Notes under the pieces: model-generated
Told to the model about the DNA's origin: nothing
What the model saw: only the letters and a program-made list of their open reading frames with translations
The model's database searches: none
Assembly: GCA_947095985.1 (NCBI GenBank)
Contig: CAMUPZ010000001.1
Coordinates: 1,025-65,024, forward strand
DNA length: 64,000 nucleotides
Direction: 5' to 3'
Source of the DNA: an uncultured Candidatus Saccharibacteria bacterium
Lineage (GTDB): Bacteria; Patescibacteriota; Saccharimonadia; Saccharimonadales; Saccharimonadaceae
Shown: positions 16,631-21,414 of the stretch, piece after piece
Layout of the letters: every line of letters begins with the position of its first letter
How positions within the stretch are numbered: position 1 is the stretch's first letter
Position numbers and translations under genes: made by a program

Positions 16631-17113
16631 CTAACTCTTTAAGCTACATAGCTCCTGCCATTTCATATGCGCCCCATAGGCTCGAGCTGGCGCATCCACT
16701 TCACTTTTCTGAAGCAATAGCTCCTCAGGATCGATAAACATCACTTCGTCACCCTCTTCACCCGGCGCAAAGTCAAAATTCTCCGGCCAGACACGACAAT
16801 AAAAACAGATTTGATTAGCGTCAATCCGCTCAATATACATCTCGTCCGACGCATCAAAAAGCTGATAGCGCAAATCGCCTTTATAGCCAACTTCTTCGTA
16901 CAACTCGCGTTTCAGCGATGATTCAAAATCCTCATCATAATCCATGCCTCCGCCCGGCAAATCCCAATACGTCCGATTGATTTCCTTAACAACCAAAATC
17001 TGCCCAGCGTCGTTATAGATGAGAGCTTTGAGCGAGATACGGTATAGGTAATCATGGCGAGTCACTCCGACTGAATCTTGCGTTACGAGATGCCCGTTGG
17101 TGAGTTTTGTCAT
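16631..17113 (-). CDS. NUDIX hydrolase
   Basis: Nudix box LPGGGMDYDEDFESSLKRELYEEVG. Confidence 0.92.
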   Translation of the reverse strand: MTKLTNGHLVTQDSVGVTRHDYLYRISLKALIYNDAGQILVVKEINRTYWDLPGGGMDYDEDFESSLKRELYEEVGYKGDLRYQLFDASDEMYIERIDANQICFYCRVWPENFDFAPGEEGDEVMFIDPEELLLQKSEVDAPARAYGAHMKWQELCSLKS

Positions 17114-17811: not shown

Positions 17812-17946
17812 ATAGCTATTATTCTATGCTGTAAAAACAAATCTGCCAACAATATATGCGCTATTTATTGTATATTATTATAGCTTTATACAAAAAATTT
17901 TGACCATCAACATATACCCTCTTCATACACCTTATTATACCAAAAA

Positions 17947-17974
17947 CCTCGACGGGGACGAACCCAAGTCGAGG
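17947..17974 (-). terminator. Intrinsic terminator
   Basis: CCTCGAC...GTCGAGG stem followed by TTTTT on the minus strand. Confidence 0.65.
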
Positions 17975-18016
17975 TGCTGTGCTTATTATATTAGCAGAGA
18001 TCTCGCGCTTCAGCGA

Positions 18017-18142
18017 TTATTCAACAGTCTCGTCATAATCCATACCGCCGCCTGGCAAATCCCAATACGTCCGCCCAACCTCTTTGACAATCAAAATCTG
18101 CCCAACGTCTTTGTAAATTAGCGCTTTGAGCGAGATATTCAT
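18017..18142 (-). pseudogene. Truncated duplicate of the NUDIX gene (41 aa)
   Basis: Translates MNISLKALIYKDVGQILIVKEVGRTYWDLPGGGMDYDETVE* then SLKRE, versus ISLKALIYNDAGQILVVKEINRTYWDLPGGGMDYDEDFESSLKRE in the intact gene; the stop falls inside the Nudix box. Confidence 0.85.
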
Positions 18143-21100
18143 CCTATATCTTTCATTATTTTATCTGTCTCTAGTAAGATTTTAATAATGCGCTGATAGT
18201 GGTCGATATCGTTCGCAGTCAATACACGACCCCTTCTATCTTTGAGCCACTTTTGCGCCGGCTGATAGCCACCAATGTAAAAATTCCATGCCAGTTCTGG
18301 GATATTGCCAAAATACTGACTATTGTTAATAAAGACTTGGTCACCATCGCGCACCACTTTCTCCACTACGTTATCACCAATCTTAGGAAAAGTGGTATCA
18401 TAATCACCAATTTGTAACGCTTTCATTAAGTGTAATTGACGCAGCTGACCACCCAACTCTGCTTTGCGCCAAAATTCCGCCCATGACTCCGGTCGTGGCA
18501 CGCGTGGAAAATCAGTTTTTAAGAATTCTTTATATTTCTCGCGATAGCTTGGACTGTGTAGCGATGCATAAATATAGTCAAAAATATCTTCAGGGTAAAC
18601 TTTGCGCGACTCTTCAGTTGGCTGCTCAACTTCGGAGAATAATTGTTGTAATTTTTCGACATCAAAATTCGCCCGCCGACCATCTTCGCTTTCGAGGATA
18701 AAGAGCGGAAACTGACTAGATATCTCCGAGGTTTTATTAGATACATAGCTTGATTCCATAATAGCATCAGAAGCTAAAACATGATGAAAACCGTCATTAG
18801 TCTTCTGTTGGCGGCAGGCACCGATACTGATATTTTCATCCTGCTTTAGATAAAGCGGCGCCACCGATTCAATCCCTTGCATACCCGGGCGAGACCAGCT
18901 TCTTGACTCAGAAATCGAATCTATGGCAAAAACCGACGGCGAATCTTCACTTAAACCACGCTTAAAGATCATCGCGATATTCTCCTCGCGGCGCAATCGG
19001 TGTGTGTGTGTGTGTGTGTGTGGCTCGCTACGCTCGCCAATCATGTTCTTCATTACTTTTTCTCTGGACCTCTCAATTACACTAGCGTCATAATAAACAC
19101 ATCTTTTATCAAAAGGTCGGTAATTCATAGGAACGATATATTTCTCATCAAGTACAGCATTCTGCAAACGATCGTAAACTTTACCCCTAGAATAAGACTC
19201 TTTATATCTAGTTATTTTTCTTAATAAATTACTGCTGATTTCATCTACTAAGATATCATCCTTACCTGTCACAATCCCCACCGAATTCACAGGCATTAAC
19301 TCGTTCAACAGAATGCCCTTTTCATATTCCTCTTGGCCTTTCGTATCTTTTGCAACAAAATAAAGCATCTTTTGGTCAAGATTTATCTTTTTAAAAGTAA
19401 CTTCCGTACCTAATTGGTTAAACTTGTCTTGGCGCAGACCAAATATGTCTTGATAATAAACGTCAGCAAACTCGGCTTGTTTGGTATTGTTTTTAACCGC
19501 AATCATAATACTGACACCTTGCATAATATCAAAAACATTTTCGTCCTTACTGCCGTCTGGGGTCGTCTCTCGTTTTTTAGCATTACCGTGGAGATTCACC
19601 ACGAAAATCTTGTCAAAAGTTCTAGCCAAATGCCAGCGCATGCCGCGAAAAGTTGGATTGTCCAAAAACCCATTGTTAGTAATCATTCCTACAATACCAG
19701 AACCATTACGTTCAATCATATCTTCAGCAAAAGCAATAAATTTTACATAGTCATCATTAAGCCACTTAGGATTACGTTCTTTTAGTTTTTGCAATCCACC
19801 TGGCTCAACTTTGTATTTATTAACCAAGGAATTCGCATAATCAGTCTTGTTATTACTTTCGGCAGAATACGGTGGATTACCCATCACTACCATCACTGGC
19901 TTCTCACTCTTCACTTCAGCAGCCAAGCGCGACTCTTCGGTTACTGCCCCTGTCAGGCCAAGACTAAACAGATCTGGCTGTACTGGAATCCCCTCCTCTA
20001 GCGTATTGGTCAGAAAAACATTAAGACGAGTCTTTAGCTTATTGACACCAGTTTCGCGCAACATCATAGCTAGTTTCAGGTGCGCTACTGTATATGGCGC
20101 CATCATCAGCTCGAAGCCAAACAAACGCGGTATTAAATTATCGTTAGCGTAGCTTGGCCATAAGCCAGCTTGCCCACTTTGAAAGTTTTTTTCATAGATA
20201 TATCTGATGGTCTCATTCAGAAATGTCGCCGTACCAACTGCCGGATCAAGGATTTGCACTCGTGACTCTACAATGTCTCGCGTTAGACGATCCTTCCGCT
20301 CTCCTTTTTTACGCCATGGCTGCGTAGCAACCGTTCGCGTTATCGTATCGCTACTCGCAAGCCCCTTCGCAATCCTAAATTCAGTTTTAAGCAACTGGTC
20401 AATCTGTCGAACGATAAACCGAACTACTGGGGTTGGTGTATAGTAAGCACCCATCTTTTTACGTTCTAGGCTGTCATAGCTCTGTAGAAAATCCTCATAA
20501 AAGTGAATAATTGGATCTTTGGTATCACAAGCATTATTGTCTGCAATGCGTAGATGACGATGGACAATATTCCGTACATCACTGACGCTAAAAATTTCGC
20601 ATAACTCGTCAACAATTTTTGCAAGTCGCTTGTCAAAGCCCGTACCAGCGATATGATCGAAAAAATGACGCAGGAATGGATTGCTTGCTGGCACTAGATC
20701 ACGCGCCTCACTACGAGTAAAGTTTTCTGGCGTGTCGTCACCGTATCGCGCTACAAATAGTCCATATACCAATGTTTGAGCATACATATCGGCAAATTTC
20801 GTTTCATCAAGGTCATGCACAAGTAGCCGCTTCATCATTTCATAAATCTTTTCAAGTTCATGCGCTTCTACGTATTCGCTTTTGAGGTAGATCTCCACAT
20901 TATCACGAATACGCCGAGCCTTACCTCCCATAATCTGCGCAAGACGACGGCCACTTTTGATACTCTCTGGTGGCAAATCCAAAAATGCTTGTAGTTCACG
21001 TAACAAGCGCTCGCCGTTTTCGGGCTGAAGATGCAGTTTGCCTTGTTTTACACAACCAAGACTGACTGTCTCATATTTCTCACCATTCTTATAAAACCGA

Positions 21101-21414
21101 AACTCGAGATAATCTGTCAAAACAAGATTAGTATAGCCAGCATATCGCTCCATTTGGTTAGTTTTCTCAGTTTTATCAAGATTTACCGTGATGTCTTTTG
21201 CTTCAGCATAGCCACGAATAATTGAGTTGTTTGACTGCTTCAAGAAAATAAAGTCTGGTGCACCATGCTCTGAATGCTTTGGATCATTCACAGCGACCAC
21301 GTCATCAAAAGTCTCCATAAGGCGCTGCAAAGCAGGTCGATAAGCATGTTCTATGGCATGACCACTGTGAAATTGACGCTTTACTTCAGCAAGATAATCA
21401 TGTATTTGCTGCAT
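18139..21414 (-). CDS. Single-chain Type IIG / Type ISP-like restriction-modification enzyme (nuclease + N6-adenine MTase + TRD, no helicase)
   Basis: PD...EAK nuclease motif, GAYYTP, ILDPAVGT, GNPPY, YRPFD, DFPRVP and IGGYQPAQKWLKDR motifs. Confidence 0.92.
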   Translation of the reverse strand: MQQIHDYLAEVKRQFHSGHAIEHAYRPALQRLMETFDDVVAVNDPKHSEHGAPDFIFLKQSNNSIIRGYAEAKDITVNLDKTEKTNQMERYAGYTNLVLTDYLEFRFYKNGEKYETVSLGCVKQGKLHLQPENGERLLRELQAFLDLPPESIKSGRRLAQIMGGKARRIRDNVEIYLKSEYVEAHELEKIYEMMKRLLVHDLDETKFADMYAQTLVYGLFVARYGDDTPENFTRSEARDLVPASNPFLRHFFDHIAGTGFDKRLAKIVDELCEIFSVSDVRNIVHRHLRIADNNACDTKDPIIHFYEDFLQSYDSLERKKMGAYYTPTPVVRFIVRQIDQLLKTEFRIAKGLASSDTITRTVATQPWRKKGERKDRLTRDIVESRVQILDPAVGTATFLNETIRYIYEKNFQSGQAGLWPSYANDNLIPRLFGFELMMAPYTVAHLKLAMMLRETGVNKLKTRLNVFLTNTLEEGIPVQPDLFSLGLTGAVTEESRLAAEVKSEKPVMVVMGNPPYSAESNNKTDYANSLVNKYKVEPGGLQKLKERNPKWLNDDYVKFIAFAEDMIERNGSGIVGMITNNGFLDNPTFRGMRWHLARTFDKIFVVNLHGNAKKRETTPDGSKDENVFDIMQGVSIMIAVKNNTKQAEFADVYYQDIFGLRQDKFNQLGTEVTFKKINLDQKMLYFVAKDTKGQEEYEKGILLNELMPVNSVGIVTGKDDILVDEISSNLLRKITRYKESYSRGKVYDRLQNAVLDEKYIVPMNYRPFDKRCVYYDASVIERSREKVMKNMIGERSEPHTHTHTHRLRREENIAMIFKRGLSEDSPSVFAIDSISESRSWSRPGMQGIESVAPLYLKQDENISIGACRQQKTNDGFHHVLASDAIMESSYVSNKTSEISSQFPLFILESEDGRRANFDVEKLQQLFSEVEQPTEESRKVYPEDIFDYIYASLHSPSYREKYKEFLKTDFPRVPRPESWAEFWRKAELGGQLRQLHLMKALQIGDYDTTFPKIGDNVVEKVVRDGDQVFINNSQYFGNIPELAWNFYIGGYQPAQKWLKDRRGRVLTANDIDHYQRIIKILLETDKIMKDIG
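19001..19022. repeat. (TG)11 / (CA)11 simple sequence repeat inside the RM gene
   Basis: Read directly; encodes PHTHTHTH; currently in frame. Confidence 0.97.

Follow-up and report, generated by a model that had tools for sequence, protein, structure and literature searches.

A (CA)n tract in a Type IIG restriction-modification gene of Saccharibacteria may toggle the enzyme between fused and split forms

The window, a 64,000-nt stretch of contig CAMUPZ010000001.1 from an uncultured Candidatus Saccharibacteria bacterium, contains a Type IIG/IIL restriction-modification (RM) gene at 18139..21414 on the minus strand, the strand of all gene features given below. In its in-frame (fused) state the gene encodes 1091 amino acids. 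The protein matched PF18135, PF02384 and PF07669 in Pfam, under the names Type_ISP_C, N6_Mtase and Eco57I, and PADLOC assigned it to REase_MTase_IIG (E 3e-266). DrdV (7LO5) was its top match both by sequence (E 4.8e-36) and by fold (Foldseek E 2.9e-34). The PD...EAK nuclease motif (residues 53-73, 21196..21258), which aligns weakly to the DrdV nuclease region, and the NPPY methyltransferase catalytic motif (residues 513-516, 19867..19878) are both intact. The alignment of LlaBIII to the RM protein was mainly from LlaBIII residue 893 onward. No helicase domain was found in the 1091-aa protein using Pfam. Judged from its sequence, the enzyme is a DrdV-like, helicase-free Type IIG/IIL protein with nuclease, N6A methyltransferase and target-recognition domain (TRD) in one chain. 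A preliminary description of this DNA had called the ORF Type IIG/ISP-like. The first part of that label agrees with the DrdV match and the PADLOC assignment; Type ISP membership was rejected because Pfam matched no SF2 helicase/ATPase between nuclease and methyltransferase.

A class II aminoacyl-tRNA synthetase gene ends 4 nt before the RM gene. On the 3′ side of the RM gene, a hairpin followed by a U run (17941..17975, minus strand; z -2.35, with 4 of 200 shuffles equally stable) is likely an intrinsic terminator; it was absent from the listing of the consensus terminator scan. Directly after the RM stop codon, window positions 18098-18137 hold an 85%-identical remnant of a NUDIX gene start (17000-17039), a possible insertion scar. 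Promoter-like matches numbered 19 against a shuffle mean of 11 (sd 4) and were left out of the reading. No inversion or excision repeats flanking the TRD modules were present among the repeats listed (20 of 40 direct families and 25 of 30 inverted pairs).

A pure (CA)11 slippage tract, (GT)11 on the plus strand, is located at 19001..19022 and encodes a His-Thr repeat in a linker. The alternating dinucleotide run as a whole is 23 nt (19000-19022). The tract corresponds to codons 798-805 of the 1091-aa ORF and is currently in frame, as the preliminary description had reported, and the linker residues 796-809 were predicted to be disordered. The description had found no other such tract in the window, and the (CA)11 tract was indeed the sole dinucleotide array among the window's 28 tandem-repeat rows. 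In the 730-kb genome as a whole no dinucleotide run is longer, and those that follow measure 20, 14 and 10 nt; extrapolation of run-length counts gave about 7e-8 expected runs of at least 22 nt in the genome. When the number of units was changed in silico other than by multiples of three, products of 811-820 aa were obtained. Both alternative frames stop early, 10 or 13 codons after the tract where 10-12 had been given, and about 277 C-terminal residues, which include most of the TRD as had been claimed, are put out of frame.

Other repeats were observed elsewhere in the genome. The second-longest dinucleotide tract, (AG)10 at C11:19202-19221, is just upstream of a 134-aa ORF (L216). At L216:2221-5131 (G000 C11), a gene which we take to be lepA-like is in two ORFs of 323 and 319 aa, about 1 kb apart with two small ORFs between them. 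An intergenic (AT)7 tract (L217, G000 C20:10842-10855) lies upstream of a 321-aa ORF, presumably aldolase-like, and is a possible promoter-spacing repeat. In-frame hexanucleotide repeats at G000 C12:14022-14061 and C4:1247-1270 encode Lys-Glu runs, where a change of length keeps the frame.

The length of the (CA)n tract was compared between assemblies. In forty-seven distinct database proteins with the CA junction the implied unit number was 6 or 8-17; the reading frame was kept in 22 of them and shifted in 25, and the tracts of close relatives covered all three frames. Near-identical proteins of 1089, 1091, 1093 and 1095 aa were found together with truncations of 813-820 aa that carried both predicted shifted tails. 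Contigs of the window's own cluster encoded 11 fused versus 22 truncated forms (among 15 listed of 33 members), and those of a second cluster 24 fused versus 63 truncated (among 15 listed of 42 members). Among sequencing runs, small shares (0.06-0.14) were seen in 10 of the 22 listed, and the four that were examined had no coverage of the tract. Repeat length differs across strains, so that the invariance which the preliminary description had named as speaking against its proposal is not seen. Its slippage repeat in the Type IIG RM gene of a Saccharibacteria (CPR) organism is borne out as variable in length, with both frame states present in nature. Because close relatives hold 6-17 units in all three frames, sequence comparison between assemblies points to (CA)n as a contingency repeat, a simple repeat shifting the frame of an RM gene.

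Behind the tract, the TRD contains two modules in tandem: module 1, of type A (residues 812-855, 18850..18981), and module 2, of type B (residues 861-905, 18700..18834), which is contiguous with the C-terminal domain. Each is about 45 residues long and runs from an N-x-x-hydrophobic strand through a PL[YFW] strand. Using a profile built from 63 single-module TRDs, the module was aligned to DrdV 777-814, including D803 and K807, and to LlaBIII 1334-1372, including N1360. According to the accessible text of the respective papers, D803 and K807 of DrdV contact bases (bioRxiv 10.1101/2021.01.06.425610) and N1360 in Loop VI of LlaBIII reads position +3 (PMC4872093). Ordinary homologues have a single module, of either type, and no tract. 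At the thresholds of our script, 113 distinct single-module regions were in frame and tract-free and about 20 others had short chance repeats off the linker, while one low-quality locus (L182) was uninterpretable in this survey. Two typed modules were found in 49 of 240 cluster representatives; they were always different from each other and made 16 combinations of 12 types, with type E seen in both slots. Three matches covered both modules among the best 150 of a 50%-cluster search, and the top matches included no close relative that had lost one of the modules. Twelve same-type pairs had pN of 0.16-0.24 versus pS of 0.61-1.07 at both positions, values which indicate that both module positions are under purifying selection; part of this divergence may predate the tandem arrangement.

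An internal in-frame ATG (Met815, 18970..18972) is located behind the tract, and a Shine-Dalgarno (SD)-like GAGGAG (18982..18987) lies 9 nt before it. The TGA of one shifted frame (18971-18969) overlaps this ATG as ATGA, and the TAA of the other (18964-18962) starts 8 nt downstream. From the ATG, a 277-codon ORF (18139..18972) covers module 1, module 2 and the C-terminal domain; it is the predicted second chain of a split state, in which a start at Met815 would cost module 1 three residues of its first strand (812-817). In relatives, gene callers predicted the C-terminal piece as a separate 277-aa protein (P0135, P0139 and others), and among the downstream two-module proteins typed, also gene-caller predictions, 27 begin with MIF and 3 with MSR. 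An overlap of 4 nt is the most frequent spacing of neighbouring genes in this genome, and 33% of its 431 first ATGs have an SD motif ahead of them, versus 6% of 3150 internal ATGs.

The junction is conserved among tandem loci. All 13 of those with upstream DNA had ATG at the restart codon; in each, one shifted frame ends in TGA at +1 and the other at +8, in TAA, TGA or TAG depending on the codon. GGAG, GAGG or AGGA was found 5-10 nt before the restart ATG in 11 of the 13, and GGGGA in the other two. These loci represent five junction types with four repeat units in DNA (CA, AGGC, CAGAG and CT), and AG, CCAG and poly-C units are suggested from protein tails only. The 13 loci, with their five junction types, may share one origin, and the +1 TGA follows from Met-Ile, so that protein constraint may be its reason. 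In 96 single-module loci used as control, the homologous residue was Leu (83), Ile (11) or Phe (2) and never Met, and SD plus a start nearby was present in 2. In module E, Met was present in position 1 only (L010, P0240). In type C lineages the restart appears, from the proteins only, to be two codons later at GTG. P0023, a protein with one module and a lengthened linker, also has Met at this site and was perhaps derived from the tandem form via loss of module 2.

RNA structure gating the SD was unsupported in six junctions (z -1.36 to +1.06). Relief of Rho polarity was rejected as an unlikely purpose of the restart: none of 55 genomes from the genus matched a Rho RNA-binding domain, against 9 of 14 controls, and the hairpin follows the gene. 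The preliminary description had proposed an ON/OFF switch, and both states do exist; the out-of-frame allele, however, keeps the 277-codon ORF. Since this ORF is intact, with its own SD and ATG and two different modules, ON/OFF is probably incomplete, and a specificity switch appears to fit the anatomy of the locus better.

Named relatives with both the tract and the tandem layout belong to Candidatus Saccharibacteria. The distribution of the RM gene is patchy: matches were found in 9 of 131 genomes of the genus (6 as 3′ remnants only), in 16 of 400 of a family-level draw and in 8 of 400 of an order-level draw, the latter without tandem modules in the regions shown. The six genomes with remnants (L006:4872-5490, L007, L008, L170, L172, L193) keep only the 3′ ~200 codons. 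This shared remnant starts inside module 2, behind an unrelated gene and in a different neighbourhood. At L214:4486-6953 (G682), the nuclease head is out of frame (153 + 654 aa), yet members of the cluster still differ in their CA tract, so that this may be a switch of the methylase only. Decay of the gene is evidently common, because 6 of the 9 matches in the genus are 3′ remnants and at the split locus L214 the nuclease head no longer shares the frame. In the methyltransferase tree, 3-4 label changes were needed in a quick, unfinished search of 81 rows with near-duplicates dropped, where several truncated N-halves were typed as tandem from repeat-coded tails alone.

Two loci have interrupted tracts. 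L211 has a nonsense codon before its tract, and both L211 and L213 are split, each with two intact halves. They are fixed or slowed in that state and, as anecdotes, cut both ways; they could be young pseudogenes. One genome (G558) carries two paralogues (L211, L212) with different units (AGGC and CT) and different module pairs, both split.

The AlphaFold model of the fused chain had a mean pLDDT of 81.9, with module 1 docked (pLDDT ~80) and module 2 left outside as a loop. The repeat linker is disordered in it, and Met815 is mid-strand in the first strand of module 1 (812-817). This docked-module model is biased, as the input alignment set single-module rows on module 1; when tandem rows only were used, residues 781-916 were below pLDDT 50 and no module was chosen. 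Docking of module 1 in the fused chain is thus modelled as feasible at most. The residues before Met815 that complete the first strand of module 1 are conserved, though translated in the fused form only, which suggests that module 1 docks in that form.

We consider it somewhat probable that (CA)n slippage toggles the DrdV-like enzyme between two forms, one fused into a single chain and one split into two chains, which are predicted to read different DNA. Such a flip would be likelier than a plain off state because the tract sits before a conserved internal start and two different modules. At one length in three, the tract would be in frame and one 1091-aa chain would be made, in which module 1, with its complete first strand, would dock in the TRD core, alone or in competition with module 2. 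At the other two lengths in three, ribosomes would stop on the internal ATG and then restart, giving a nuclease-methyltransferase chain of ~815 aa together with a specificity chain of 277 aa. The two chains would reassemble, and module 2 would dock since module 1 would be short of part of its first strand. If LlaGI/LlaBIII and the Helicobacter pylori enzymes are taken as analogues, methylation and cutting would shift together, with the target altered at one or two base pairs adjoining the methylated adenine. A wider reading seems to us evenly balanced: that in host-associated Saccharibacteria one microsatellite toggles between a fused and a translationally coupled two-chain enzyme, that folding selects the module so that the enzyme is never off and has two targets, and that about a dozen modules are shuffled across two slots (16 pairs) as a natural modular code for Type IIL specificity.

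A plain ON/OFF switch is a possible explanation of lower probability, and a serious one because a tract at apparently the same linker turns H. pylori HP1353-54 off. The in-frame enzyme would then be active on one motif, or on two if either module docks, while the out-of-frame chain would be inactive and the C-terminal ORF silent or useless. In the accessible text of PMC3936762, the first poly-C tract of JHP1272/HP1353-54, at the same linker by primer translation, is ON/OFF, and CRTTAA/CRTCNA methylation in H. pylori 26695 was seen only once the frameshift was repaired; Campylobacter Cj0031 is given as a phase-variable Type IIG enzyme in that of PMC4889913. The chain break inside the TRD core also agrees with an off state, and the frame counts near 1:2 fit it equally well through a one-third in-frame share. 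What it leaves unexplained is the new Met with SD at 13/13 tandem loci against Met in 0/96 single-module loci, as well as a Met that moves with module position and stops that are kept at +1 and +8. Polarity, with the Rho domain in 0/55 genomes, is unlikely to account for these, and L211 and L213, unless they are young pseudogenes, are split with intact halves and interrupted tracts.

It seems rather improbable that both states are active and that the switch alters breadth or cutting, the fused form reading both motifs and the split form one, or the split form methylating without cutting. Full-length JHP1272 overexpressed in E. coli did methylate both GGWCNA (92.3%) and GGWTAA (72.8%), as given in the accessible part of PMC3936762; the long linker ahead of module 1 would permit module 2 to dock in the fused chain, and AlphaFold picked no module from tandem rows alone. 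The HP1353-54 switch, however, was clean according to the same part of that source, and the conserved strand residues of module 1 point to its docking in the fused form. It is very improbable indeed that the gene is decaying, that its tract is neutral or a stutter of the assembly, and that the second module is a recombination spare. The genome is a 58-contig assembly without stated read support, and gene remnants are frequent in the genus. Against this stand lengths that range from 6 to 17 units, four different repeat units at one site in DNA, the 113 single-module regions that are in frame and tract-free, and the lack of a one-module-deleted close relative among the top matches.

If the fused/split reading is true, a frameshift would alter the function of a protein instead of destroying it, the assembly of fused or split chains picking between competing sub-domains. 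Ultra-small epibionts would then operate contingency switches on defence and methylome, and genes annotated as frameshifted pseudogenes in Saccharibacteria genomes would be active. The locus and its relatives would also provide a catalogue of swappable ~45-residue specificity modules on one scaffold, which bears on the reprogramming of restriction enzymes, a goal of long standing.

Several known systems resemble this locus in part. JHP1272 (Hpy99XIV) and HP1353-HP1354 (HpyAXVI) of H. pylori have two poly-C tracts, one ON/OFF and one adding a spare module (Krebes et al., PMC3936762). In the accessible text of that paper, the spare TRD piece changes GGWTAA to GGWCNA or CRTTAA to CRTCNA, and the added module copy displaces the resident one. 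The spare-module principle is already known, because the H. pylori enzyme changes specificity in this way. The H. pylori primers translate to RGEVFKHML-PPPP before the first tract, where the Saccharibacteria protein has REKVMKNM, and to PFNTNIALIL after the second, where the module starts with NIALIL versus NIAMIF here. By these primer-length peptides, the slippage tract of this Type IIG gene is apparently in the same linker, and each of the two genes carries an extra base-reading module that differs from the first. In contrast to the two-tract design, there is here one tract, followed by SD, ATG and tandem modules inside the TRD, and no C-terminal spare module behind a second tract. JHP1272/HP1353-54 is thus an apparent homologue for which both spare-module switching and an OFF state at the linker are established, as far as the accessible text goes.

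DrdV (7LO5/7LVV) has the same domain order, no helicase and the corresponding module at 777-814 with D803 and K807, but at ~20% identity it has a single module and no repeat-coded linker. LlaBIII has a homologous methyltransferase and TRD, with Loop VI, the reader of +3, within the part duplicated here; unlike our enzyme, LlaGI and LlaBIII have a helicase/ATPase. In SSR-bearing Type I hsdS genes (NgoAV, and extended hsdS of Mannheimia and Fusobacterium), slippage likewise alters specificity rather than turning it off, but there the units are whole TRDs, a downstream TRD is lost or gained through the frameshift, and no second-chain restart is described in the accessible text of Atack et al. (PMC7383803). 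Cj0031 of Campylobacter jejuni, likewise a phase-variable enzyme of Type IIG, has effects on methylation and phage restriction; it was studied as ON and OFF variants, and the accessible text describes no tandem modules (PMC4889913). A BcgI-like switch in the accessible part of PMC4450513 has a different design. The full-text papers searched, which were largely open-access, held no description of one tract with restart and tandem modules, and none of a Type IIG gene under phase variation in Saccharibacteria. Two Saccharibacteria genome announcements (PMC7441243, PMC6797545) mention motif detection, with no motifs found in their accessible text, and in a 2026 preprint on CPR methyltransferases the terms 'phase', 'Type IIG' and 'repeat' do not occur. 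Repeat-driven specificity switching and phase-variable Type IIG enzymes were known already, and what appears novel here, within the papers searched, is a single tract combined with a predicted restart and tandem modules.
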